NCBI GenBank assembly: GCA_965200485.1
Contig: CBDAUD010000002.1
Location: 137,939-201,938 of the forward strand
Source of the DNA: a bacterium
Lineage (GTDB): Bacteria; JAAXHH01
Reading direction: 5' to 3'
Length of the DNA stretch: 64,000 nucleotides
Numbering within the stretch: position 1 is the first letter of the stretch; every line of letters starts with the position of its first letter. Below are positions 2,458 to 63,552 of the stretch, piece by piece. Below the pieces are notes generated by a model that did no database searches, had not been told where the DNA came from, and saw only the letters and a program-made list of their open reading frames with translations. The position numbers and the translations under genes are program-made.

Positions 2458-5400
2458 GTGACGCGGATGCGCATCCCAACAGGCGCTGTTTCTGTTTTTT
2501 TGATGCTAAGTCTGGCCGGATGCGGAGACGCTACGCCTTCCCGCAACGTGTGGATGGAAGCCCTTTCGGAGAAGAACACGGGGCTCGCCTACCTGTACCG
2601 GAACGATCTCCAAGGTGCGGCCGATTCCTTTGAGGCGGTCGTCCGGCTGGTGCCCGGTGAGCCGCTCGGCCACGCGAACAGGGCCCTGGCGCTCCTGAAG
2701 CTCCGGGACTACGAAGCAGCCGATGCGGAGATCGACCGGGCCGTGGATCTCGCGCCGGAGGATGGCGCGGTCCTTTCCATCCAGTCTGACATCGTGGCGG
2801 CCCGAGGGGATCGCGAACGCGCCTTGTCCATTCTCGCCCGCGCGGTCGACCAGAACGAGTCCGACGTGGCGCTCCGATACAAATACCTCACGGAAATGAG
2901 AAGGCTGCGGGGACCGGCACACCGAATCGAAGCCACGGTGGGCGAATTGCAGGCCATGCTCGCGTACGAACCGGACAATCTGGCCGTGCTCGTCGAATTG
3001 AACGAAGCCCTGGTTCGTCTGGACCGGGTGCAGGAAGCCCTGACCGGATACGAACGCCTGTCCCGGTTGCTCGTCCCCGTCCGGGCAGACGTACGGACCT
3101 GGCTGGATCAGACCGTGGACGCGCTGAAACGCCGCGACGCGGCCGAAGCCGAGTCCACCGCGGGCATTCTGGGCAACCTGCTCGTGGTGGATCCGGCCTT
3201 CCGTTCGGCACGGGATCGCCTGGGGGACCCCTCGCAGCAGTCCCCCCCGCTATACCGTTTCCGGACGGCGCCGGCCGACTTGGCCATCCAGACCGCGGAG
3301 GCCCTGGTCGACATGCGTTTCGCAGACGCGACAGACGGATGGCTCGGCGATGCGCTGCGGACACGGGATGCATGGACGGACCTGGCGCTGGCAGACATGG
3401 ACGGGGACGATCGCCTGGATATCGTGCTGACGGGACCGGACGGGTTGTTCGTCGCGCCCAACCGTCTGGCGGACCGGGAGACGATCTCGAATCCGTGGTC
3501 CGTTGCATGGGGGGGATCGGACTATCGGCTGACCCCCGGCGACTTCGACAACGATGGGGACGTGGATCTGCACGTGGCCGGAATCGGGCGGTCCAGGGTG
3601 TATCACAATGCGGGAAACGGCGCCAGCATCCTTGCCCAGACCTTGCCTTTGGCCGAAGATTCGACCAGGTCGAATGCGCCCGTGTACGTGTCGCGGGCGG
3701 ATTTTGACCACGACGGCGATCTGGATATCCTGGCGTCAAACGGGATGGCGCTTCGATTCTATCGGCATACGGCGGACGGACTGTTCGAAGAGGCCACCGC
3801 CGAAACGGGTTTCGAAGAAGCGCGTGGCGAAATCTCCATGGCGGGCGGGAAACCCGCCTCCGTCGCTTCTGCCGCCTACCGCGGGCGGTCCGTTCAGCCG
3901 ATCGCGTGGGGCGACTTCGACCTGGACGGGGCCGTGGATGTGTTCGCGTTGTCCGAGGCCGGTTCCCACCGGATGTACCGAAACGTGAGACAGGGCAGGT
4001 GGGTGGACTGGACCGCCCGTTTTGGTGGCATCCCCCGGGGGCGGGCGCAGGCGGCGGTCGCGGCCGATTTCAATAACGATGGGTCGCTGGACCTGTTTTT
4101 GGCGGGATCCGGGGACGACGGATGCCGGCTGTTGTGGAATGAGGCGGGCAGCGGTTTTGCAGCGGAAGACGCGAATCCGGATGGCGCGTGTAGCGGCCTC
4201 GTTGTCGCCGCCGTCCGGCCCGTCGATTTCGACAATGACGGCTTCATCGACCTCGCGCTGGCCGGCGCCGCGGCACCGGAACGGGACGGGCTCCGGCTGA
4301 TCAGAAACCTCGGGAACGGCCGGTTCGAGGATCAGTCCGCGCTGCTGCCCGACTTGCCCGCCGACGTTGAAGACCTGGAAATCGGCGATCTGGACGATGA
4401 CGGCGATTTGGACCTCGTGCTCCTGTCCGCGGGCCGCGCGGTCATACTCCGGAACGACGGGGGCAACCGGAACGGCTGGTTCAAGGTCCGCCTTGCCGCC
4501 GCGCTGGAGGGAAGCGGCAAGAACAACTTCTACGGCATAGGGTCCACGATGGAAATCAATGCGGCGGCGCACTACCAGTCGCTGCTGGTGAACGGAGCCG
4601 TCACCCACGTCGGGCTCGGCGATCGGGAACAGGCGGACGTAATCCGGGTCATCTGGAGCAACGGGGTACCCCAGAACCGGATCGATCCGGCCTCCCGCAC
4701 GCTCATCGTCGAACCCCAGCGACTGAAAGGCTCGTGTCCGTCGCTGTACACCTGGAACGGCGACCGATACGTTTTCGTCACGCACCTGATGACGCGAAGC
4801 GCGATTGGCGCCCTGACGGAAACCGGTGCGCCCGCCTGGCCGGATGCCGCGAACGACTATGTGAAGATTCGCGGCGACCAGCTGCGCAAGCGAGACGGCA
4901 GATACGAGGTCCGGGTCGTGGAGGAACTCTGGGACGCGGTGTACATGGACAAAATGGAACTTCTGGTCGTCGATCACCCGGCGGAGACGGACATCTACGT
5001 GGATGAGAAGTACCTGCCGCCCCCCTTCCCGGACCTGGAGATCCATACGGTGACCGATCCACGTCTTCCCGTGGCGGCACGCGATCACCGCGGAAACGAC
5101 ATACTGCCCCATCTCACCGCCCGGGACAGCCTGTACGTCGGCGACTATACGCTTGGCCAGTTCCAAGGCGTTCCGGAACGCCATTCAATCACCCTGGACC
5201 TGGGCGACCTGAAGCATGCCAAGCGTATCCATCTCTATCTCGGCGGCTGGATCATGCCGATCGAACCCAGTTCCAACCTGGCCCTGTCCCAGCGAAGGAA
5301 CGCCGCCGTCATACCGCCGTACCTGGAGACGCCGGACAGCAAGGGCCGTTGGCAGACGGTCATTCCATATACCGGCTTTCCGTCGGGGGAACACAAGACG

Positions 5401-6033
5401 ATATTCATCGATCTGACGGACTGTTTCCCTGCCGACGACTTCCGTATCCGGCTCACCACCAATCTGCAATTGTATTGGAGCGAGGCGTTCTTCACCGTCG
5501 ATCAACCCGAGCGCGTAGCGCAGCGGGTTACCCGCCTGTCTCCCGCTTCCGCGGACCTTCATTACCGCGGGTACTCCCGGGAGTACCGGTACGCCCCCCA
5601 CGGTCCCTTCGTTCGGGACTACGATACGCTGAGCGGAGAACCGCAGTGGCTTCCTTTCGAGGGATACAGGACGCGGTACGGCGATGTGGCGTCGCTGCTG
5701 AAGACGTCCGACGATCACTACGTCATCTATAGTTCGGGCGAGGAAATCGCGGTAACCTTCGACGCGGCGGATTTGCCCGATCTGCCGTCCGGCTGGACGA
5801 GGGATTTCATCCTGCACACCGACGGATGGCTCAAGGAGGGCGACCTCAATACGGCGACCGCCGCCACGATCGGCCCCCTGCCCTTTCACGGCATGGACCG
5901 CTATCCGTATGGCATCGAGTCGCATTACCCCGACACCGACGGTCACCGGCAATACCGGGACGCGTACAACACGCGCTGGGTTTCCCAGGCCGGGTTCAGA
6001 GCAGCCGTAAGACGGCACGGCCTGGCACGCTGA
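2458..6033 (+). CDS. Large lipoprotein, 1191 aa: N-terminal TPR repeats, FG-GAP/VCBS beta-propeller repeats, C-terminal ASPIC/UnbV domain (CRTAC1 family)
   Basis: Lipobox LSLAGCGD after a hydrophobic h-region. TPR-like AxxAxxxY pattern at residues ~40-200. Repeated DxDGDGxxD / FDNDG motifs characteristic of FG-GAP. The C-terminal ~450 aa matches UnbV_ASPIC architecture. GTG start. Confidence 0.7.
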   Translation: MTRMRIPTGAVSVFLMLSLAGCGDATPSRNVWMEALSEKNTGLAYLYRNDLQGAADSFEAVVRLVPGEPLGHANRALALLKLRDYEAADAEIDRAVDLAPEDGAVLSIQSDIVAARGDRERALSILARAVDQNESDVALRYKYLTEMRRLRGPAHRIEATVGELQAMLAYEPDNLAVLVELNEALVRLDRVQEALTGYERLSRLLVPVRADVRTWLDQTVDALKRRDAAEAESTAGILGNLLVVDPAFRSARDRLGDPSQQSPPLYRFRTAPADLAIQTAEALVDMRFADATDGWLGDALRTRDAWTDLALADMDGDDRLDIVLTGPDGLFVAPNRLADRETISNPWSVAWGGSDYRLTPGDFDNDGDVDLHVAGIGRSRVYHNAGNGASILAQTLPLAEDSTRSNAPVYVSRADFDHDGDLDILASNGMALRFYRHTADGLFEEATAETGFEEARGEISMAGGKPASVASAAYRGRSVQPIAWGDFDLDGAVDVFALSEAGSHRMYRNVRQGRWVDWTARFGGIPRGRAQAAVAADFNNDGSLDLFLAGSGDDGCRLLWNEAGSGFAAEDANPDGACSGLVVAAVRPVDFDNDGFIDLALAGAAAPERDGLRLIRNLGNGRFEDQSALLPDLPADVEDLEIGDLDDDGDLDLVLLSAGRAVILRNDGGNRNGWFKVRLAAALEGSGKNNFYGIGSTMEINAAAHYQSLLVNGAVTHVGLGDREQADVIRVIWSNGVPQNRIDPASRTLIVEPQRLKGSCPSLYTWNGDRYVFVTHLMTRSAIGALTETGAPAWPDAANDYVKIRGDQLRKRDGRYEVRVVEELWDAVYMDKMELLVVDHPAETDIYVDEKYLPPPFPDLEIHTVTDPRLPVAARDHRGNDILPHLTARDSLYVGDYTLGQFQGVPERHSITLDLGDLKHAKRIHLYLGGWIMPIEPSSNLALSQRRNAAVIPPYLETPDSKGRWQTVIPYTGFPSGEHKTIFIDLTDCFPADDFRIRLTTNLQLYWSEAFFTVDQPERVAQRVTRLSPASADLHYRGYSREYRYAPHGPFVRDYDTLSGEPQWLPFEGYRTRYGDVASLLKTSDDHYVIYSSGEEIAVTFDAADLPDLPSGWTRDFILHTDGWLKEGDLNTATAATIGPLPFHGMDRYPYGIESHYPDTDGHRQYRDAYNTRWVSQAGFRAAVRRHGLAR

Positions 6034-9938: not shown

Positions 9939-11747
9939 GTGTCAGACCACATCAGCGTACTACCCGAGAAGCTGGCGAATCAGATCGCCGCAGGCGAGGT
10001 GATCGAACGGCCCGCCTCGGTCGTAAAGGAACTGGTCGAAAACGCCATCGACGCGGGTGGCCTGCGTATTTCCGTGGAGATCAAGGGGGGCGGCAAGCAA
10101 CTCATACGCGTCATGGACAATGGCAGGGGCATGGGCCGGGCGGACGCCTCGCTGGCTTTTGCGCGCCATGCAACCAGCAAAATTTCGGACGAAGAGGATC
10201 TCTGCCGCATTGGTACGTTGGGGTTTCGGGGGGAAGCGCTGGCTGCCATCGCCTCCGTGGCCCGGGTCGATCTGACGACGAATACGGCGGGGGAAGCGGC
10301 GGGCACCCGGGTTCGCGTCGATGGCGGGTCGGCCCCGCAAGTCGGAGATGCCGGCCGTGCGCAGGGCACCACGGTCTCCGTCTCCCAGCTGTTCTACAAT
10401 GTGCCGGCACGTCGGAAATTCCTGCGGAAGGCGGGTACGGAAACGCGCCATATCGTTTCGACCGTGTCCACGATGGCTATGGCCCATCCGGAAATCGCCT
10501 TCTCGCTGACGGTGGATGGAAAGGAAAGCCTGTCCCTTCCCCCGGTCTCCAACACGTACGCCCGTGCCCAGGCCGTCATGGGCAATGCGCTGTTGGATCA
10601 CATGATGCCGGTCGCCTACGATGACGAGCTGGTCAAGATACACGGATTCATCAGCCGTCCCGACGCCACTAGGGTTTCCCGCACGCACCAGTACCTGTTC
10701 ATCAACCAGCGCCCGGTATCCAGTCGCGCGCTCAATCGCGCCGTGTTCGAAGGGTATGGATCCATTCTCCCCAGGGACCGGTATCCCGTATCCATCGTTT
10801 TTCTGACGGTCGATCTCGACCAGGTGGACGTCAACGTCCATCCGGCGAAACGCGAAATCCGGTTCGCCGACGAGTCCAGCGTGTACAAGCGGCTGTTGCG
10901 GGCTGTTCGTCTGGCGCTGCAGACTTCGGACGTGGTGCCGGTTTTCGAAACGGATACGCCGGACGCGTCCACCATGACGCCGGCTGCAGCGCCGATAAAC
11001 GGGGGCGAAACCGGTGCGGGATCAATCATGGAACGCCGAACGCAGATCGATCTGTTCGGACCGGTCCGACGTGGCGCCGACGCCGCTTCGGAAACCTGGA
11101 CCTATACCCCGGGCGATCCGGGGCCGGAAGGCGCCGGCGAAGCGCGGCAGGGAACCGTCAGGGAGGATGCCCAGGGGGCGCTGGTGTCATTCTGGCAGCT
11201 GCACAACGCCTACATCGTCGCGCAGGTAAGGGATGGATTCATCCTGATAGACCAGTACGCCGCCCATGAACGCGTGCTGTTCGAACGCGCGTTGCAAACG
11301 ATGGACCGGGAATCCGCGCCTTCCCAGCAATTGTTGTTTCCTGTGACGTTGGATCTCATGGTGCCGCAGTTCGCCCTCGTCCAGGAACACTTCGATCTGT
11401 TCGGCAGGCTGGGATTCAGTTTGAAACTGTTCGGTGAGCGGACCGTGGTCGTGGATGCCGTCCCCTGCGCGGCGCACAACCAGGGGGAGGATACGTTGTT
11501 CCCGCGCATGGTCGAGAACCTGCAGAACCTCTCGGCCAGGGACCTCAATCCGGCGGAGCGTATCGCACGCACTTTTTCCTCCCACGCGGGCATCAGGAAG
11601 GGGGATCCGCTGTCTCAGCAAGAGATGAACACCCTCGTGAACGATTTGTTCGCCACGGAAATGCCCTATGTGACGCCCAGCGGCCGGCCGGTCCTCGTGC
11701 GCATGCCGCTTGAAGAGATCGAGCGCCGGTTCAACAGGGCCCCTTAG
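9939..11747 (+). CDS. mutL: DNA mismatch repair protein MutL
   Basis: N-terminal GHKL ATPase LANQIAAGEVIERPASVVKELVENAIDAGG, GFRGEAL motif; the C-terminal dimerisation domain carries a QGEDT motif that resembles the MutL endonuclease-type motif (DQHAxxERxxxE-like), which I could not confirm by eye. Confidence 0.9.
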   Translation: MSDHISVLPEKLANQIAAGEVIERPASVVKELVENAIDAGGLRISVEIKGGGKQLIRVMDNGRGMGRADASLAFARHATSKISDEEDLCRIGTLGFRGEALAAIASVARVDLTTNTAGEAAGTRVRVDGGSAPQVGDAGRAQGTTVSVSQLFYNVPARRKFLRKAGTETRHIVSTVSTMAMAHPEIAFSLTVDGKESLSLPPVSNTYARAQAVMGNALLDHMMPVAYDDELVKIHGFISRPDATRVSRTHQYLFINQRPVSSRALNRAVFEGYGSILPRDRYPVSIVFLTVDLDQVDVNVHPAKREIRFADESSVYKRLLRAVRLALQTSDVVPVFETDTPDASTMTPAAAPINGGETGAGSIMERRTQIDLFGPVRRGADAASETWTYTPGDPGPEGAGEARQGTVREDAQGALVSFWQLHNAYIVAQVRDGFILIDQYAAHERVLFERALQTMDRESAPSQQLLFPVTLDLMVPQFALVQEHFDLFGRLGFSLKLFGERTVVVDAVPCAAHNQGEDTLFPRMVENLQNLSARDLNPAERIARTFSSHAGIRKGDPLSQQEMNTLVNDLFATEMPYVTPSGRPVLVRMPLEEIERRFNRAP

Positions 11748-25031: not shown

Positions 25032-25796
25032 CTACGGCTGGTAGGCTTCCCAGAGCGCCTTGTAGTATGCCATCAGTCGTTCGGGTTCGGGACTGTGGTC
25101 GATTTCAGCGAGTGTGTACCCGTCGTACCCGTCGTCATGGAGCAGCCGGAACAGCTCCCGCCATGGATACTCGGCGCGCGCAAGTTCGGTGATATGCACC
25201 AGGCCGATCTTGTTACGCAGCAGCCGATAGTTGCATTCAATGGATCCGTCCACCACCTCGCCGAAATTGGAGTTCCAGCAAATGTACGCATTGGGATGAT
25301 CCGCATGATCCATGATGGCCCGCATGCGTCTCGGCTCCTGCGTATCCCGGCCGTGCACCTCCACCCGAATCTGCACGCCGAGGCCGTCGGCCGCTTCCGC
25401 ACACGTCCCGACGGCCTTTCCGATCTGTTCGAGCGTCGCCTCTTCCGGAACGCCCGCTTCGGTCTGCAGCCCGTTGGGGCGTACCTTCACGCCCGGGCAG
25501 TCGAGGTCGGCCGCCAGTTTCGCGTACGCCAGCGTGCCGTCTATGTTCGCTCGAACCTCGTCGGGATCGAGCGAGTGATATTCGAAAGCCGTGCCAAGCC
25601 CCGCCAGATCCACGCCGCCGTCCTCGAATCTTCGACGAACCTCCGATCGCTCGTCCGCACTCAGCGCGGCTTCTACGCCGTGGGCGTGGGTCGTACGGAG
25701 TTCCACTCCGGTAAAACCCGTCCTGTGGCACATGTCGATGAGGGCCGGCAGGTCCCAGTCCTTGCCGATCTGATAGGTCACGAATCCCAGCTTCAT
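25032..25796 (-). CDS. Sugar phosphate isomerase/epimerase (xylose isomerase-like TIM barrel)
   Basis: AP_endonuc_2 / TIM-barrel pattern, with GFTGVEL, divalent-metal Glu/His/Asp ligands and ..VHITE... Confidence 0.7.
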   Translation of the reverse strand: MKLGFVTYQIGKDWDLPALIDMCHRTGFTGVELRTTHAHGVEAALSADERSEVRRRFEDGGVDLAGLGTAFEYHSLDPDEVRANIDGTLAYAKLAADLDCPGVKVRPNGLQTEAGVPEEATLEQIGKAVGTCAEAADGLGVQIRVEVHGRDTQEPRRMRAIMDHADHPNAYICWNSNFGEVVDGSIECNYRLLRNKIGLVHITELARAEYPWRELFRLLHDDGYDGYTLAEIDHSPEPERLMAYYKALWEAYQP

Positions 25797-34929: not shown

Positions 34930-35002
<73 letters not shown>

Positions 35003-43143: not shown

Positions 43144-43257
43144 TCCCTGCTGGCCGGATGAAGGAGACAACGGGGCGAATCCCCGGGTGTTGGGGCCCAC
43201 TGTCGCGTTTTTCGGGTGGTCCGTTCGCCCTTTCTGCGGCGAGTGTGACAAGATCCT

Positions 43258-44531
43258 TCATCCAAGAACCCCCGCCGCGAACAAGGTGCCCAAATCCACT
43301 TCATTTCGCCAATTCTCTAGTTCAGGATGCGCTGTTCCGAGCACGATATCCGTCGATCCGGTCTCATCTTTCGCGAAACACAGCACCTTGTCCAATCTGG
43401 CTGAGTTCAGCAACACCCGTGAATGCGTTGCCACTAGCACCTGCCCCGTATACACCGACGCGAGCGAGTCATAGACCGTCGACACGGCACCAGGGTGGAT
43501 CCCGTTCTCGGGCTCCTCGACCAGAAAGACCCCCTGCTGTAGATCGTCGGGGTGGACATATGCCAGCAGAATGAGCGCCGTATGCCGTAGGGTGCCGTCG
43601 GAGACGAACCAGGACGGTATTTTGTATCCGCCGGCATACTTGTATTGTATACCAGGTAGCGATGCCTGTCGTCAGGCCGCTCTACGGTTGTGATATCGAC
43701 CAGGTCCGGAAGGACGATCTGAAGGTGGGCGATCCAACTGCGGTATCTCCTTTTGTTCTTTTGTCGAAGCCGACTGACCAACCAGGGCAGGCTCGATCCA
43801 TCCGGGCGGAAGCCTTTCGCCCGGCTCGGTGGGCTTGGCTTGCGTATCTCGAGGCTATTGAGGACGAGACGTTGGACCCCGTTGGCGAGATGGTCGCGAA
43901 ACCACATGGCCACAGGGAAATTCCGGTCATCCGATGGGAGATTTCCCAGTGCCGAATGCAGGGGGCTCAGATTAAACGATGCCGTCCTACCCTTGCCTGT
44001 TTTATAGGTCTCGTTGTAGAAATTGTTGTTCCCGCCGGATACCTTACTGACCACGACCTTGTTGCTCTTTAGACGTTTATTCACGGACAGGGAGGTTGGC
44101 GCGGAGGATGGCATGGGAAACGACGGCCGACGGCGTTCCGTCTTCTCGTCGGCCGTCCTCAGCAACAACGTCTCGGCCTTTATCTCAAACTGCCGCATCG
44201 TCTCATCGAAACCTATGGCGACCTCGTATCGGGCCGTATCAAGATGCGGCTTCGCCGTTCGTTTTCGCAGATCGTCCGGGATTCGCGCCTCAATCGCAAG
44301 TTCCAGATTCTTACCCTGGTGCTGGAAGAGCAGTTCCTCCGGATTCCCCGTTCGATTCTCAATGGCCTCTGTGATGCCCGTGGTTACCAAGTCTTGCAGA
44401 AAACCGAGGACATCAAGAAAGGTCGTCTTGCCTGAAGCGTTCGGTCCCACAAGGACGTGAAATGCTCCGAGGGGTCTGGACGCGTAACGCAGGCATCTAT
44501 AGTTCAGCGCTTCAATCAGCGTAATCATCAT
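43258..44531 (-). pseudogene. AAA_15/AAA_21 ATPase, paralog of the 542..1696 gene, disrupted by a frameshift (orphan, no partner gene)
   Basis: Frame A (44531 down to ~43640) encodes the Walker A region HVLVGPNASGKTTFLDVLGFLQDL. Frame B (about 43670 down to 43258) encodes ..SWFVSDGTLRHTALILLAY..FLVEEPENGIHP..VLVATHS.. (signature, Walker B, H-loop). The two parts cannot be joined without a +/-1 shift near 43600-43680. Confidence 0.7.
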
Positions 44532-44567
44532 ACGGATCCGCGTACTGCCGACAGTGGCCATCCCCCC

Positions 44568-45785: not shown

Positions 45786-46123
45786 GCGAAGGCCTTTTCC
45801 ATGTGAGGGGCATGTCGCGAAGCATGCGCAGGGTATGTCCTGAAGCGAAACAAGTTCGGTAGTGCGGGACCGTATGTTAACCGCTTAAGGTGAAGCTGTC
45901 AATTTGCATTTATCGGTTGCCATACCGCGGTGGAAACTGTACTATCTTGACGCGGTGGCCGCCGGTCTGGACCGCCGTTCTTAATGACTAAAAAGACAAA
46001 TTGGGAATATGCGATCGGCCCAGCGTCGTTGCCCGTCCGGATCGGTTTCATCGCACGGGTGTCCGCCAACGCATTGTCCGGTCAGTCCTGAATGTTGTAA
46101 AGGCGACAAAGTTCTTCTCACCC

Positions 46124-48244
46124 ATGCGCCTGATCGAAAGACTCAATAGCCTGCCCGCCGGCGCTTCCCTGGTCCTGGCCGGCGTGGGCCAGCGCGCCGG
46201 GGTCCCTGCCAAAGAAGCCGACGCGGGCTGGCCCATGGGCGTGGTGCGCCGGCCCGACGGCGACCTGATCGTGATCGACTACCAGTGGCATCGGCTGTGG
46301 CGCATCGATCGCGACGGCATCCTCCACGCGTTCGCCGGGGACGGGATAGCGGGCGACTCGGGCGATGGCGGTCCGGCCTCCGAAGCGCGGTTTCGCCACC
46401 CCCACGATCTGACCCGGGACCGGCACGGCAACCTCTATCTTTCCGATCTGGGCAACTTCACGATCCGCCGCATCGACTACGAGACGGGGATCGTCACCCG
46501 CGTCGCGGGCAACGGCCGGGTGGGCCGCGGCGGCGACGGCGGGTCGGCGCTGGACGCCGAGCTGGACTGTACGTGCGGCGTGGCCGTGGACCGGGAAGGC
46601 AACGTGTACCTGGCCAGCGAATGGACGAACAACATTCGGCGTATCGACGCCCGGACCGGGATCGTCGAGACCGTCTTCGGGCCGCATGCCCGGCACTATC
46701 CCTCGGAGCGGGGAGAAAGCCGGCCGTTCGCGGGCCCGGCCCTGAGTCTGGGCGGCTACCATGGCGATGGCGGTCCGGCTCGGGACGCGGGATTCCATCA
46801 CCCCGAACATCTTGCATTCGATTCGCGGGGCGATCTGTACGTGTGCGACAATTCCAACGATCGGATCCGGAAGATCGATATGCAATCCGGCATCATCGAC
46901 ACGGTCCTGGGAAACGGGCAGCGCGCCTCCAACGGCGACGGCGGTCCCGCCGTGGAAGCAAGCACGCTCATGCCGGATGCCATCTGTCTGGACGTCCACG
47001 ACAATCTCTACGTCGGCGAGAAGTACGGCTTCCGGGTCCGGAAGGTGGAGCGGGAGACGGGTACCGTCCGTACGCTGGCGGGCACCGGCGAACCGGGGTT
47101 CGGCGAGGAAGGACTGCCCGGCGTCGTCACGCGATGCAATTCCGTGGAAGCGGGTATCTGCGCCGACCCGGACGGCACGGTGTTCTGGGGCGACTGTTCC
47201 GGCCGCTTGCGGCGCTGCGACGGTAAAACGGGGATCGTGACGACGGTCCTCGGCGGCACGACCGTACACGACGGCGAGGCCGCTTCAAGTGCGTTTCTGA
47301 ACGGTCCCGGCGGCCTGGCTGCCACGCCCGATGGCCGCATCGTCATAGCGGACGTGTGGAACCAGCGCATCCGGGCGATTGATCCGGAATCCGGGGTGAT
47401 TGAGACGGTCGCGGGGACCGGTTCGCGTGCGTACGGCGGCGACGGCGGTCCTGCCGTCGAAGCCCACCTGGGGAATCCGCACGACGTCTCGGTGGACCGC
47501 GCCGGAAGGATTGTCATCGCGGATACGCGTCACGGGCACGTGCGGCGCGTGGACGGGGACGGTGTGATCCGAAACGTCGCCGGCGCGGCGTTTCAGTGGG
47601 ACAAGGGCGATGGCGGACCCGCTCTGAGCGCATGCCTGATGCACGTCCTCTCGGTCGCCCACGGCCCCAACGACGACCTATACATCGGAGACGCGGGTTG
47701 CGGACGGATCAGGAGAATCGACGCCAGCACGGGCATCATCACCACGGTAGCGGGCGTCGGTCTGCACGGATACGCGGGGGACGGCGATCTCGCTGTCCGG
47801 GCGCGGATCGGCGCGCCGACTGCCATCCAGGCAGATGGCAACGGAAATCTCTACTTCGCGGACGACCGGTACCATGTGGTCCGGCGGGTGGATGGCGGCA
47901 CCGGGGTCATTTCCACCGTGGTCGGTACGGGAGAAGCAGGGTTTTCCGCGGACGGTTCGAGGGCCTCAAGCGCGGCGATCTCCCAACCCAGGGGGCTGGC
48001 CGTGGACGCGCGTGGTCGGGCGTACTTTTCCGATACGGGCAATAATCTGGTACGTCGCATCTCGGAGAACGGCGTCCTCGAAACCGTGGTCGGCAGCGGG
48101 GCGTACGGCGACTCCGATGCGCCTCTCGCCGCGCGAGCGGTCCCGTTGAACCAGCCCAATGGCCTGTGTTTCTACGGTGAGGACGTCCTGCTCCTCAGCG
48201 ATCACTTCAATAACCGGTTGAAGGCGGTCCGCATCGGAGACTGA
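46124..48244 (+). CDS. Large NHL-repeat beta-propeller protein, about 707 aa, at least 10 NHL units
   Basis: Repeated G.GDGGPA..A.L..P.G.A.D..GNLY..D..N..IRRID units. ATG at 46124 after a 338-bp lower-GC promoter region. Confidence 0.75.
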   Translation: MRLIERLNSLPAGASLVLAGVGQRAGVPAKEADAGWPMGVVRRPDGDLIVIDYQWHRLWRIDRDGILHAFAGDGIAGDSGDGGPASEARFRHPHDLTRDRHGNLYLSDLGNFTIRRIDYETGIVTRVAGNGRVGRGGDGGSALDAELDCTCGVAVDREGNVYLASEWTNNIRRIDARTGIVETVFGPHARHYPSERGESRPFAGPALSLGGYHGDGGPARDAGFHHPEHLAFDSRGDLYVCDNSNDRIRKIDMQSGIIDTVLGNGQRASNGDGGPAVEASTLMPDAICLDVHDNLYVGEKYGFRVRKVERETGTVRTLAGTGEPGFGEEGLPGVVTRCNSVEAGICADPDGTVFWGDCSGRLRRCDGKTGIVTTVLGGTTVHDGEAASSAFLNGPGGLAATPDGRIVIADVWNQRIRAIDPESGVIETVAGTGSRAYGGDGGPAVEAHLGNPHDVSVDRAGRIVIADTRHGHVRRVDGDGVIRNVAGAAFQWDKGDGGPALSACLMHVLSVAHGPNDDLYIGDAGCGRIRRIDASTGIITTVAGVGLHGYAGDGDLAVRARIGAPTAIQADGNGNLYFADDRYHVVRRVDGGTGVISTVVGTGEAGFSADGSRASSAAISQPRGLAVDARGRAYFSDTGNNLVRRISENGVLETVVGSGAYGDSDAPLAARAVPLNQPNGLCFYGEDVLLLSDHFNNRLKAVRIGD

Positions 48245-56616: not shown

Positions 56617-57447
56617 TTACGACGGTAGGACCCGCTGTCCGAGGACGATGTGGTGAAAGAGCGACTGCGTCCGTTCCGGCAGCGCTTCGAACTGTTCCGG
56701 GGTGAGCGGGACGACGTCGTTGGGGCGAAATCCGCGATTGGCGGCGTCGCGTTCGAAGTCCGACAACCCCGGTACGAGCGGATTCAGGTTGAACCACCAC
56801 GGGGCGTACCGGGCAATGATGGCGATACGGGACTTATCGCTTCGGTTTTCCCCGTTTATGTGCCAGATCCGGCTGTCGAACATCAGCACGCTGCCCGGCT
56901 GGCCCTCCGCCTGGATCTCGGAGGGGTGCGTCCTGCCCGGCGCCAGGCTGATGTCGCCGGTAGGATTGTTGCCCGCCTTGTGACTCCCGGGCACCACCAC
57001 GGTCGCGCCGTTGTCCCCGGTGAAGGAGGTCAGCATCCATATGCTCGTCAAAAGGAGCGGCGCGTCGGGGTAGGGCGCCGGAACGCGGTAGTCGTAGCCC
57101 TGTCCGAAGGGGTAGTCCGCGTGAAGACCCCCGCCCGGCTCTTCGGACCTCGGATAGCCGGGCGCCAGGATGACACCCGTCGTCATCGAGATGCGCACGT
57201 GATGGCCGAACAGGGCTTCGGTGACGCCCATGATGCGTTCATCCGAAAGGTACGGTGCGATGGACGGGTCGTGGGCAATGATCCCCTGGATGGCGTGCCG
57301 GCCGTTCGCCTCGCCGGCGGGGCGGGACCGGGCCGTGGCGACCAGGCTGTTCCGTACCGCGGCCACCTCGTCCGGCGGTATGACGCCGTCAACCACGCAC
57401 CAGCCCTCGATCCGGATTCGCTTCACGAGATCATCGACGGTTGACAT
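56617..57447 (-). CDS. Phytanoyl-CoA dioxygenase (PhyH) family oxygenase
   Basis: ..HADYPFGQ.. / ..GATVVVPGSH.. Fe-ligand pattern, 276 aa. Confidence 0.75.
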   Translation of the reverse strand: MSTVDDLVKRIRIEGWCVVDGVIPPDEVAAVRNSLVATARSRPAGEANGRHAIQGIIAHDPSIAPYLSDERIMGVTEALFGHHVRISMTTGVILAPGYPRSEEPGGGLHADYPFGQGYDYRVPAPYPDAPLLLTSIWMLTSFTGDNGATVVVPGSHKAGNNPTGDISLAPGRTHPSEIQAEGQPGSVLMFDSRIWHINGENRSDKSRIAIIARYAPWWFNLNPLVPGLSDFERDAANRGFRPNDVVPLTPEQFEALPERTQSLFHHIVLGQRVLPS

Positions 57448-60017: not shown

Positions 60018-60216
60018 TGGGAGGTTCCTCGATTCTTGTAATCTCGGTTTTCGGTCGGATTGGAAGAAAATGCTTGATGCGATGGTTTTTTCTCGCATAG
60101 GTATAATAAGATAATAAGAAATTCCGTTGTGAAAACCACCATAAATGTTCTGTGAACGCGCCTTTCTGCAGGCCCGCCTTTCTGCCGACGAAGGTCGAAA
60201 GTCTATGAGGTGAATA

Positions 60217-62320
60217 ATGCAACAGATCACGTACGTTGAAGAACTGACGATTATGCTGATCGACGAAAACACCGGTAGGCTCTTGAACGTGCCGGACCGC
60301 ACCCTGGGCTACGTGCTGTCCGGGGCTGTTCTGTTGGACCTGGCACGCCTGAATCGAATCGACACCGACCCGGACTCGCTCATGCTGCTGGACGGTACCC
60401 CCGTTGGCGACGACCTGCTGGATCCCCTGCTGGCCGATATAGCCCAGGCGGGCGAGGCCAAATCGATCGAGCACTGGGTACGCCACGGCGCAGGAGAGCA
60501 TATCGACCATCTGATAGAGCAGGCGCTGGAGAGGCTGGTGGCGCGTGGCATCCTGGACACCGACGACGGCAGGGGATACTTTAGGCTTTCCCGCCAGGTG
60601 ATCAGGCGTCGCATGCACTACCCTCCCCTTCCGGCGGACGGAGCGGCGGAAGAAGGCGGCGCCGGGACGGCGCAAGAAGACGATGCCCGGCAGGAGGAAA
60701 TACGCACCCGGGTCATGCGCATTGTTCTGGACGACGAGCTGCCGGGTCCGGACGAGTTGCCCATCATCAGCCTGGCGGACGCCTGCGGCCTTTTTCAGCG
60801 GATCCTGCCGTCGGAGGATTACGACCGGCGCGTCAGGGAACGTATCGAAACGCTGGCCGCGATCGGACTGGTGGAGCGGACCGTAGCCGGCGTCGTCCGT
60901 CGAGTTTCCGCGTCCGAAGCCCTTGAGATGGGCGAGGCGGTCCGACGCCATGGCGGCACTTGGCCCAAAGTGCCGGGCCTCCCGTTTTTCGGCAACGCCT
61001 TCAGTATGAACCGCGACCTGCCGGGCTTCTTTTTGAAGCACTTCCGGGAGCTGGGGTCGGTTTACGAAATGAGCGCATTGGGCCGGAAATGGGTGGTTCT
61101 GGCCGGACCGGAAGCCAACAGGTTCATGACTCGGCAGGCCGCCAACCACTTGCGCACAGGGGACTTGTGGACCGGCTTCAATGAAGACATGGGCGCCCAC
61201 CAGAGCATGGTCAGTCTCGATGGCGCCCCGCATTCCAAGTTGCGACGGGCTTTGCAGTACGGTTATTCCGCGCAGTACGCGCGGACGCGGGTGCCCGACA
61301 TCGTCGAAGGGACGAAACGGCACTTGGACCGGCTGCCGACCGACACCCCCGTCACGGTCAACGAGATCAACAAATCGCTGGTCACGGACCTGCTCGGGAT
61401 ACTGACCGTCGGCATGTCTTCGGATTCGTATGTAAAAGATATCAACGGGTACATCACGACGCTGCTGTTGGTGCATGTGTTAAAGAAACTGCCGCCTGTG
61501 GTTCGGTTTTTACCTGGAACGCGTCGGCGTACGAGACGCATGGAGGAGATGTTCCGGAAAATCGTGGCGGGGCGGGAGCCGGGAAAACGCCAGGGATGCC
61601 CCCGCGATTTGGGCGACGACATATTCGAACTGCACGCCAACGACCCCCTTTTCTTGCCGGAAACCGACCTGTTTACGAATCTTATGGGACCCTATCTGGC
61701 AGGAATCGACACGGCGGCCAACACGCTGTCCCTGCTGCTCTATTCCCTTTTGAAGGATCCCGACACCATGGTGCGGTTGCAAAAGGAAGCAGACGATTTC
61801 TTCGCGGGGGGGGGAGCCGAACGCCGAGAGCTTCAAGAAACTGGTGGACACACGCAGCGCCCTGCTGGAAACGGTTCGGTTGTACGCCCTGATTCCGGCG
61901 CTGCCCCGGTATGTCGCCAACGGCTTCGAATTCGGCGGTCACTACATTCCCTCCGGCACGACGGTGATGTGGGCGATGTCCGTATCCCACCTGCTGGAAG
62001 AGCACTTCCCCAATCCGACGCATTTCGACATCGACCGCTATTCCCGGGACAAGGGCTACGGGTCGGGCGTGTTCGCGCCCTTCGGCCTGGGCCCCCACAG
62101 CTGCCTGGGTCAGGGTTTTGCCCAGCTCCTCATGGCCGTCGGCGCCGCCACCATGCTGCACCATATGGACTTCGAACTCGCTTCGCCCGATCCCGATAAG
62201 AAACTCAAAATGACCCATCACACCACCGCCAGGCCTGATGACAATTTCAAGGTCCGGATCTCGCCGCGTAATCAACACGCAGGTGCAAAGCCGGCGTATG
62301 CGGCGACGCCGGGAGCGTAA
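60217..62320 (+). CDS. GPP34 (GOLPH3-like) N-terminal domain fused to a cytochrome P450; reading frame interrupted by a +1 shift in a G10 homopolymer (61806-61815)
   Basis: N-terminal ..LGYVLSGAVLLDLARLNRID.. is a GPP34-like helical domain. The P450 starts near PKVPGLPFFGNAF, with I-helix AGIDTAANTLS. After the G10 run the P450 continues in another frame (ORF 61844..62320): K-helix ETVRLYALIP, then FAPFGLGPHSCLG heme-thiolate loop. Removing one G joins ..FFAGG-EPNAESFKKLVDTRSALLETVRL. Confidence 0.65.
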
Positions 62321-62352
62321 GCTTGACGACAGCAGGCGGACAATCCGCTAGA

Positions 62353-63552
62353 ATGTTCGATCTGGACGCGCTGCGCGCGGTTGCCATGATGCTGGGTCTG
62401 GTGGTGCACGCGGGCATCTTCGTGCTGCCGGACGCGTGGTTTCAGGACATGCTGCAGAAGGAAGTCCAGTCTCCGGACGAAATGACCCTTGTTGATGTCC
62501 TGGTGCCCCCGGCCACCTTCAACTACCATACGGTACAGGACAAATCCGTCGGCGAAGACCGGTTCTACGAAGTGGTGCTTGAACTGATCCACGGCTTCAG
62601 AATGCCAGTCTTCTTCTTGCTCAGCGGGTATTTCTCGGCCATGTTGTGGCAGCGGCGCGGCCTGCGCCCGCTGACGAAGTACCGCCTGAAGCGCGTGGGC
62701 GTGCCGTTCGCCGTCAGCTGCGTGACCATCTTGCCTGCCACGGTCTGGCTGCTAACCCAGGGCAGTCTGAACCAGCGGGATATCCCGCTGGCGGCCTTTC
62801 CCTTTATGTGGCTGTTCAGTCTGGCCCACCTGTGGTTTCTGTGGTATTTGCTTATCCTGGTCGGCGTCATGGTCTTCGCCGTCAAGCTGGGGGCGCGTTT
62901 CCGGCATCCCGCATACGGTTGGCTGACCATCCCGCTGGCCCTGGCGGGCGCGATGCTCATGAGCGAGTCGGTATTCGGCGCGGACGAGTCCGCCCCCACC
63001 CGCCTGGTTCCGAGTCCGGGCAACCTGCTCTACTTCGCCATGTTCTTCGCTTTCGGCGCATACATGTACCAGCGCCGCATCGCCGTCCGGGGCTGGTGGA
63101 TCGTCGCCTTGCCGGCGGCTGTGCCTTGCTACCTGCTCGCCATGCACTTTTTGGAGGGGTATATCGTCCAGGCCGGGGGAAATCCCGGTAACGCCTTTGT
63201 GTTCAGAGACGCGCTGACCGTCTACGCCGCCGTCTTCGAGACGGCCTTCGCCTGGCTGGCCGCCTTTGGGCTGATGGGGCTCTTTCGCATCATAGCCTCC
63301 AAAGAGCGGTTCTGGGTGCGGTACATGTCCGACGCATCCTACTGGATATACCTGATCCACTTCCCGCTGGTCGTCTTGTTTCAACTGTGGATCGTCGATT
63401 GGCCGATCCACTACCACCTGAAGTTTCTGCTGGTTTGCGCCGCGGTGAGTCTCGTCGCGCTGGTCACGTACCACTTCGCCGTCCGGTACACCTTCATCGG
63501 CGCAACACTCAACGGTCCCCGTTCCCCGCGCCAACGACCGGACACCGGGTGA
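62353..63552 (+). CDS. Acyltransferase family 3 membrane protein (OafA/OpgC-like)
   Basis: MFDLDALRAVAMMLGLVVHA.. N-terminal signature of Acyl_transf_3, about 10 transmembrane helices. ATG at 62353; the track ORF starts with TTG at 62323. Confidence 0.75.
   Translation: MFDLDALRAVAMMLGLVVHAGIFVLPDAWFQDMLQKEVQSPDEMTLVDVLVPPATFNYHTVQDKSVGEDRFYEVVLELIHGFRMPVFFLLSGYFSAMLWQRRGLRPLTKYRLKRVGVPFAVSCVTILPATVWLLTQGSLNQRDIPLAAFPFMWLFSLAHLWFLWYLLILVGVMVFAVKLGARFRHPAYGWLTIPLALAGAMLMSESVFGADESAPTRLVPSPGNLLYFAMFFAFGAYMYQRRIAVRGWWIVALPAAVPCYLLAMHFLEGYIVQAGGNPGNAFVFRDALTVYAAVFETAFAWLAAFGLMGLFRIIASKERFWVRYMSDASYWIYLIHFPLVVLFQLWIVDWPIHYHLKFLLVCAAVSLVALVTYHFAVRYTFIGATLNGPRSPRQRPDTG

Follow-up and report, generated by a model that had tools for sequence, protein, structure and literature searches.

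A frame-interrupted GPP34-cytochrome P450 fusion gene, almost certainly of the GPP34_L family, and its putative conjugation and export partners

A 64,000-nucleotide stretch of the bacterial contig CBDAUD010000002.1 (positions 137,939 to 201,938; hereafter the window) carries at positions 60217-62320 a gene in which a GPP34 domain is fused to a cytochrome P450. The window was assigned to the Gemmatimonadota, as its MutL protein was 75-77% identical to proteins of "Gemmatimonadetes bacterium" metagenome-assembled genomes (MAGs) and 82-84% identical to those of further relatives. The gene is, with near certainty, a divergent and frame-interrupted member of GPP34_L, the long form of the two GPP34 architectures of sponge symbionts (PMC11706023). 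The features of the gene, with amino acid (aa) positions where these apply, were as follows.

60207..60212, plus strand: Shine-Dalgarno-like GAGGTG, 4 nt 5' of the ATG at 60217, read from the sequence
60217..60951, plus strand: GPP34 (GOLPH3/Vps74-fold) domain, aa 1-245, from Pfam, a family profile and AlphaFold2 (AF2) with Foldseek
60628..60675, plus strand: 16-aa acidic insertion L138-Q153 in the loop after the beta-hairpin, from alignment and AF2
60868..60951, plus strand: long helix of aa 218-245 connecting GPP34 to the P450, from AF2 secondary structure
60964..61805, plus strand: N-terminal two thirds of the P450 domain in the frame of the ATG, PF00067 positions 1-307, E 4.9e-15
61806..61814, plus strand: homopolymer of nine G, a +1 indel relative to the family and the site of the frame break, from tblastn and the 38-sequence alignment
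61814..62320, plus strand: C-terminal third of the P450 domain in the +1 frame, PF00067 positions 326-459, E 6.1e-28

The span 60217-62320 measures 2104 nt, or 3 x 701 + 1, and is not the one continuous open reading frame (ORF) that a preliminary description of the locus had taken it to be. That description quoted peptide strings that were all present in the span and overlooked a frame break within the P450 domain, where two frames meet at the nine-G run, the longest homopolymer of the window. An ORF of 660 aa (60217..62199) encoded the GPP34 domain and positions 1-307 of the P450 profile, and an ORF of 158 aa in another frame (61844..62320) encoded profile positions 326-459 including the K-helix and the Cys-ligand loop. 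Removal of one G from the run gave a 700-aa protein (the corrected protein), and tblastn with this protein switched from frame 1 (aa 1-532) to frame 2 (aa 531-700). The position of the run was gap-free after the deletion in an alignment of 38 sequences made up of the window copy and 37 homologs. In the sequence as given, the +1 break leaves the P450 without an uninterrupted coding sequence.

The extra G was judged slightly likelier to be an assembly artefact than a genuine inactivating mutation, because the break lies at the longest homopolymer of the window and because the codon signature and conserved residues downstream of it are intact. Past the run, GC content at the three codon positions followed the shifted frame (0.62/0.46/0.78 compared with 0.66/0.42/0.76 upstream) and only 4 of 42 conserved columns deviated from the family, compared with 18 of 108 upstream. 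Homopolymers are a classic site of long-read consensus indels. A genuine frameshift would make the gene either a pseudogene that lost its function recently or a phase-variable one switched on and off by strand slippage, perhaps with other GPP34_L paralogs elsewhere in the genome; this is a serious contender that we consider somewhat less probable. The deposited assembly gives a truncated 660-aa product (P0001), the window copy was the most deviant of the 38 sequences (22 of 150 conserved columns against a median of 8) and has lost the otherwise conserved R100, and the window holds a second frameshifted gene with no homopolymer at its break, all of which weigh against an intact gene hidden by a sequencing error. 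Also in favour of this reading, from 1 to 6 GPP34 genes have been reported per symbiont genome (Ferreira et al. 2025, PMC11706023). Set against a genuine frameshift, besides the position of the break and the intact downstream sequence, were the retention of every catalytic motif and the lack of a homologous G tract at this position in the other loci, where nothing points to a conserved slippage device. On the same observation, programmed frameshifting and slippage during transcription at the run were set aside.

The second frameshifted gene encodes an AAA_21/AbiEii-like ATPase (Pfam E 7e-10; 43190-44561, minus strand) whose Walker B and H-loop region ('FLVEEPENGIHP...VLVATHS') runs on in another frame with no homopolymer of at least 6 bases near the break. 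A search of the window for more frameshifts by codon-position GC phase flagged mostly ordinary gene junctions. Poly-G or poly-C tracts of 12-17 nt were observed in loci related to the fusion gene (L012:9997, L051:7368, L046:11514 and 11536, L058:1651, L067:15922 and L068:7918). Some of these were located at the ends of fusion genes, such as the G16 tract at L012:9997 past a gene ending near 9989, and they may be intergenic elements or long-read artefacts.

The N-terminal domain is a homolog of GOLPH3. PF05719 was matched at aa 8-226 (E 3.3e-29, 102.8 bits with a cut-off of 29.1), and a profile of the GPP34_L family searched against the PDB recovered GOLPH3 (3kn1, E 3.6e-11) and Vps74 (E 2e-9). 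The family profile was used in place of a single-sequence phmmer search of the domain against the PDB, in which the match to Vps74 was too weak (E 0.06). The domain modelled alone with AF2 reached a mean predicted local distance difference test score (pLDDT) of 87, and all seven Foldseek matches in the PDB with E of 0.001 or lower were GOLPH3 or Vps74, with template modelling (TM) scores of 0.52-0.66 and 9qpq_B as the best at 0.66. A beta-hairpin projects from the modelled domain at E113-115/E122-124. Neither a signal peptide nor a transmembrane helix was found in the window protein, in which the first helix starts from aa 6, and most family members begin at the first GPP34 helix (MLRFAEE...) and hence have no signal peptide.

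The acidic stretch that the preliminary description had placed as a linker between the two domains is the insertion L138-Q153 inside GPP34. It was present in 0 of the 37 aligned homologs and was disordered in the AF2 model, with pLDDT below 50 at aa 142-151. The true connector is the helix of aa 218-245, which leads into an invariant Pro/Gly hinge (P250...G254...G259), and the junction at aa 245-250 was in frame with no stop codon or internal ribosome-binding site between the domains. The whole corrected protein, modelled with AF2 on the family alignment, had a pLDDT of 86.9 and a predicted TM score (pTM) of 0.83, and disorder was restricted to aa 142-151 and the C-terminal tail.

The two frame-separated parts of the P450 domain scored 55.7 and 98.2 bits against PF00067, for which the cut-off is 22.8. 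The N-terminal part included the hinge and the I-helix AGIDTAA at aa 495-501, while the C-terminal part included the ExxR pair E551/R554, the PERF-type motif PxxFDIDRY and the Cys loop FGLGPHSCLG, and all of the motifs of P450 membership (I-helix AGIDT, ExxR, PERF-type and Cys loop) were present. The codon of Cys629 is located at 62102-62104 and the stop codon at 62318-62320. Invariant residues in the 38-sequence alignment were T499 in the I-helix, E551/R554 of ExxR, and H627, C629 and G631 in the haem loop. The fold was nearest to those of Methylococcus capsulatus and human CYP51, CYP3A4/5/7, P450 BM3 and CYP184A1 (TMt 0.76-0.86), and identity to the nearest solved P450s was 18-22%. The domain is classed as an E-class, O2-activating P450 with intact catalytic motifs that is outside any solved or established CYP family. 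Members of one CYP family share at least 40% identity by rule, and the I-helix signature of CYP51 is AGQHTS. An identity as CYP51 was rejected, as the best value was 22% (M. capsulatus CYP51) and the I-helix AGIDTAA is not the CYP51 motif. No flavin or Fe-S family was matched by Pfam in the window fusion protein, in which GPP34 was the only non-P450 domain.

Assignment to GPP34_L rests on the two domains lying in one frame across their junction and on the end-to-end alignment of the window protein with the 37 homologs after deletion of one G. The corrected protein matched more than 115 protein clusters, each about 655-690 aa long and carrying PF05719 as well as PF00067; identity was 35-57% and the matches covered 93-99% of the query. 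A scan of reference genomes, with one genome per GTDB species, identified 553 relatives across more than 12 phyla, with members in Dehalococcoidia, Acidimicrobiales, Latescibacterota, Gemmatimonadota, Binatia, Vicinamibacterales, Bryobacterales, Nitrospirales, Spirochaetia, Trueperaceae, Caldilineaceae and Alpha-, Gamma- and Deltaproteobacteria. The genome of the window is outside the 553 as the peptide pattern of the scan does not fit the NPTHFDIDRY of the window copy. The identities of both domains and their N- to C-terminal order, as given in the preliminary description, were therefore borne out by Pfam, by a confident structural model and by a conserved architecture in other genomes, and the belief that the architecture had gone undescribed was out of date. 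It was published in 2025 as "GPP34_L", a fusion of GPP34 and cytochrome P450 found in 656 of 663 long GPP34 proteins (Ferreira et al. 2025, Microbiome 13:4, PMC11706023). GPP34_L was reported in that study only from sponge-symbiont genomes, with the family confined to symbionts of sponges and corals and missing from free-living relatives, was expressed in the Aplysina aerophoba metatranscriptome and was present in 92.6% of symbiotic Gemmatimonadota genomes, and rare GPP34-Rieske and GPP34-ABC-ATPase fusions were described (PMC11706023). Several of the related loci analysed here carry SB066x and APA isolate prefixes, which are assigned to sponge MAGs in the same paper. The window protein has the N-terminal GPP34, the C-terminal P450 and the length of about 660-700 aa of GPP34_L proteins, and differs from the family in being frameshifted as deposited, in its unique 16-aa acidic insertion and in lacking R100.

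That the fusion could be a chimera formed by mis-assembly or gene calling was raised in the preliminary description, and the gene does hold an assembly-suspect homopolymer. This was rejected as having a negligible probability, since the two domains meet at aa 245-250 in one frame and in a conserved way, AF2 models this junction with confidence and the same architecture recurs in the independent clusters and the genome matches noted above.

Two observations on homologs concern the architecture of the gene and its surroundings. A 953-aa homolog (P0089) was annotated with GPP34, MFS (PF00083/PF07690) and P450 domains. Either the three are truly fused or separate genes were merged at gene calling, and a genuine triple fusion would tie the oxygenase physically to an efflux pump. 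In one Dehalococcoidia genome, hybrid histidine kinase, GPP34-P450 and acyltransferase genes formed a block that occurred twice, about 1.7 Mb apart on chromosome OZ241987.1 (L002 and L003), with equal gene coordinates and match scores, which looks like a recent segmental duplication.

Directly downstream of the fusion gene is the conserved partner gene of this lineage.

62323..63552, plus strand: Acyl_transf_3 (AT3) integral-membrane acyltransferase, PF01757 E 7e-31

The AT3 gene starts 2 nt past the P450 stop codon with a TTG at 62323 (an alternative ATG is located at 62353), and no terminator-like site was detected between the two genes in a sigma-70/terminator scan. It is presumably co-transcribed with the fusion gene. 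The window AT3, an ortholog of AT3 partners in other phyla, was 42-47% identical to the AT3 directly downstream of the fusion in 14 other loci; its similarity to the AT3 of a second Gemmatimonadota locus was much lower. Across loci, similarity of the fusion and similarity of AT3 showed a weak rank correlation (rho 0.29, p 0.21), and no fine-scale co-phylogeny is claimed.

Neighbourhoods were compared in 79 fetched loci, in which ORFs were called, the fusion was placed by BLAST and neighbours were annotated; a full-length fusion ORF was present in 78 of these. Among the closest genes of 180 aa or more on the downstream side (71 loci), Acyl_transf_3 was the commonest (18), followed by an EcKL/APH-type kinase (9), MFS (8), an AMP-binding ligase (5) and a sulfotransferase (4), and the nearest upstream gene (68 loci) was a sulfotransferase in 12, an AMP-binding ligase in 6, MFS in 4 and EamA in 3. 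On the same strand within 2.5 kb of the 78 fusions were AT3 (18), sulfotransferase (15), EcKL/APH kinase (12), AMP-ligase (8) and MFS (17) genes. At least one conjugating enzyme was found in this range in 53 of 78 loci, and MFS together with a conjugating enzyme in 10. The MFS partner was of the DHA2/EmrB efflux type.

The arrangements were modular and partly lineage-linked. The fusion was followed by AT3 in Dehalococcoidia and other Chloroflexota, Acidimicrobiales and Gemmatimonadota, and by a kinase and then MFS in Proteobacteria, Spirochaetia and Binatia. Caldilineaceae probably have this second arrangement also, with MFS at the same spacing and no kinase ORF called. A sulfotransferase preceded the fusion in Binatia, Nitrospirales and Latescibacterota, and an AMP-ligase flanked it in Vicinamibacterales. 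The neighbour families listed included no ferredoxin or reductase family, and a Cys-motif scan, itself crude, revealed no ferredoxin-like small ORF within 3 kb of the fusion in the 78 loci and the window.

Phosphatidylinositol 4-phosphate (PtdIns4P or PI4P) is bound by GOLPH3 in a pocket of W81, R90, R171 and R174, which was tested with W81A/R90A and R171A/R174A mutants (Wood et al. 2009, PMC2806290). Equivalent residues were identified from the family profile aligned to GOLPH3 3kn1 (E 3.6e-11) and 9qpq in native numbering.

GOLPH3 W81: Pro in 30 of 38 family sequences and aromatic in 0 of 38; P26 in the window copy
GOLPH3 R90: Ala in 36 of 38 and Ser in 2 of 38; S35 in the window copy
GOLPH3 R171: Asp/Glu in 26 of 38, a charge reversal, and Arg in 2 of 38; D97 in the window copy
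GOLPH3 R174: Arg in 35 of 38; I100 in the window copy

Three of the four pocket residues were therefore replaced family-wide and all four in the window copy, while the family has a basic motif of its own beside the hairpin (R130, R132, R134 and Y135 in 34-37 of 38 sequences). With the pocket residues not conserved, the sequence offers no basis for transferring PI4P binding to GPP34_L. The domain shares with GOLPH3/Vps74 (PDB 3kn1, 9qpq, 2zih) the fold with its beta-hairpin and a peripheral rather than transmembrane character, and differs in being 14-18% identical, in its unconserved pocket and in its fusion to an enzyme. Bacteria have no Golgi.

The pocket also argues against a proposal, drawn by analogy with the Legionella effectors SidC/SidM (PMC11706023), that a secreted GPP34 protein binds PI4P on the sponge-cell phagosome and blocks phagolysosome maturation, the role of the P450 being left unspecified (Ferreira et al. 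2025). The proposal is in keeping with a true GOLPH3/Vps74 homolog that has the beta-hairpin and an R174 equivalent in most members, and with a family that has been reported solely in symbionts of sponges and corals, not in their free-living relatives, and as expressed in A. aerophoba. It is nevertheless unlikely in our assessment given the family-wide changes at W81, R90 and R171, to which the window copy adds R174 to Ile. Most members are without a signal peptide, and the main text of PMC11706023 is silent on signal peptides as it is on sulfotransferases, acyltransferases and MFS transporters. The partner genes AT3 and MFS, which are tightly linked or overlapping, encode integral bacterial membrane proteins, and a haem protein would need an export route for folded proteins and a host reductase.

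The same-strand conjugating enzymes and efflux pumps beside the fusion suggest instead a membrane-tethered oxygenase in a hydroxylate-conjugate-export cassette, an explanation that as a whole we hold to be evenly poised between right and wrong. GPP34 with its rigid helix occupies the place of the N-terminal membrane anchor of microsomal P450s. The domain would keep the P450 on the cytoplasmic side of the membrane of the bacterium itself, through the face of the beta-hairpin and a family-specific basic patch (R100, R130/R132/R134-Y135) or by docking on a membrane partner. The P450, with redox partners encoded elsewhere, would hydroxylate a lipophilic small molecule at the membrane; possible candidates are a xenobiotic, a lipid of the symbiont and a sterol or terpenoid of the host. 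In the lineage of the window the new hydroxyl would be O-acylated by the Acyl_transf_3 enzyme, in other lineages it would be phosphorylated by the EcKL-type kinase or sulfated, or the molecule adenylated, and at many loci the product would be exported by the DHA2-type MFS pump. The GPP34-Rieske and GPP34-ABC-ATPase fusions are compatible with GPP34 as a generic module for the cytoplasmic membrane face. In the preliminary description, a lipid- or membrane-targeting domain was thought to deliver the P450; the membrane targeting, which we infer, is still the best-supported idea, and phosphoinositide binding does not transfer with the GOLPH3 pocket unconserved.

Several points weigh against the cassette. 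Membrane binding and coupling to the neighbouring enzymes are argued from synteny and analogy, the window copy lacks R100 of the basic patch, 25 of 78 loci were without a nearby conjugating enzyme and the ORF calling in related loci was crude. The four kinds of partner could represent four separate pathways rather than one theme, and horizontal co-transfer can hold genes adjacent without functional coupling.

It is conceivable, though rather unlikely, that the GPP34 domain is a protein adaptor docking the P450 on a membrane protein such as AT3, the MFS pump or a redox partner and not a lipid tether. GOLPH3 and Vps74 do not need the PI4P pocket to bind the cytosolic tails of membrane enzymes, the Golgi glycosyltransferases (Wood et al. 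2009, PMC2806290), and by analogy an adaptor would fit a pocket lost while the fold was conserved, the membrane partners AT3 and MFS, and the rare fusions of GPP34 to Rieske and ABC-ATPase domains (PMC11706023). The partners vary by lineage however, with AT3, a soluble kinase, a soluble sulfotransferase or a ligase, and present no single conserved docking target, and the 25 loci noted above had none of them.

A membrane-tethered oxygenase of this kind would have counterparts in known systems. The fusion shares with microsomal class II E-class P450s such as CYP51 and CYP3A4 the E-class fold (TMt 0.76-0.86), a Pro/Gly-rich hinge (PxxxGLPxxGN) right after the N-terminal module, and the I-helix acid-alcohol pair, ExxR and FGxGxHxCxG. 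As judged from its neighbouring genes, its context also resembles metabolism of lipophilic substrates followed by conjugation. Microsomal P450s are anchored by a transmembrane helix, whereas the fusion has a soluble 245-aa GOLPH3-fold domain and a helix. P450 BM3 (CYP102A1) and the M. capsulatus CYP51-ferredoxin (PDB 7jj1, 6mcw) are likewise bacterial E-class P450s with a second domain and were among the closest structural matches of the haem domain. Their redox partners are C-terminal, in contrast to GPP34, which is N-terminal, matches no cofactor-binding Pfam family and cannot be assumed to supply electrons. The order of enzymes in eukaryotic phase I/II/III metabolism (P450; sulfotransferase, ecdysteroid-kinase-like kinase or O-acyltransferase; efflux) appears by analogy side by side in the cassettes, a likeness drawn from gene neighbourhood alone between bacterial enzymes and animal ones that are not their orthologs.

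Other regions of the window were also annotated. A PhyH (phytanoyl-CoA dioxygenase family) gene (56617-57447, minus strand) is located 2.8 kb upstream of the fusion, and in 2 of 68 related loci the closest gene upstream was a PhyH gene. The window gene may encode a further oxygenase for branched lipids, or its presence may be coincidental. A 198-bp intergenic region (60019-60216), AT-richer than its flanks (tataataagataataagaaatt...), separates a divergent SelA/aminotransferase-like gene and the fusion gene and is likely a divergent promoter site. A scan of this region for the sigma-70 consensus found nothing, and promoter and terminator scanning around the fusion gene gave results at background level.

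Two large repeat proteins were encoded in the window, one of 1191 aa with TPR, FG-GAP and ASPIC/UnbV domains (2458-6033) and one of 747 aa with an NHL/teneurin-like beta-propeller (46001-48244). Eukaryote-like repeat proteins of this class have been reported to be enriched in sponge symbionts. In the segment 24984-28618 the chosen ORFs had a third-position GC of 0.61-0.69 compared with about 0.8 elsewhere and no Pfam matches, and a GC-phase scan suggested a minus-strand gene at 25050-25500. Here the gene calls are probably in error, unless the segment is of foreign origin. A tRNA gene (34930-35002, minus strand) was the sole Rfam match of the window.

As the GPP34_L architecture has already been published, the fusion itself is no discovery. 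The pocket loss and the cassette synteny go beyond PMC11706023 and are new as far as the literature consulted shows. GPP34_L reportedly ranks with the most consistent genomic markers of sponge symbiosis, a pattern that spans 16 phyla. The loss of the pocket together with the modular linkage to acyl-, phospho-, sulfo- and adenylyl-transferring enzymes and efflux pumps makes a metabolic as opposed to an effector role testable. On a wider and speculative view, to which we give little credence at present, GPP34-P450 cassettes would be a horizontally spread bacterial equivalent of phase I/II/III metabolism for host sterols, terpenoids and sponge defence chemicals, and the GOLPH3 fold an ancient oxygenase tether later repurposed by eukaryotes for PI4P-dependent Golgi sorting. 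If the phase I/II/III reading were true, a share of the sponge lipids that are hydroxylated and also sulfated, phosphorylated or acylated would come from the symbionts and not from the sponge.

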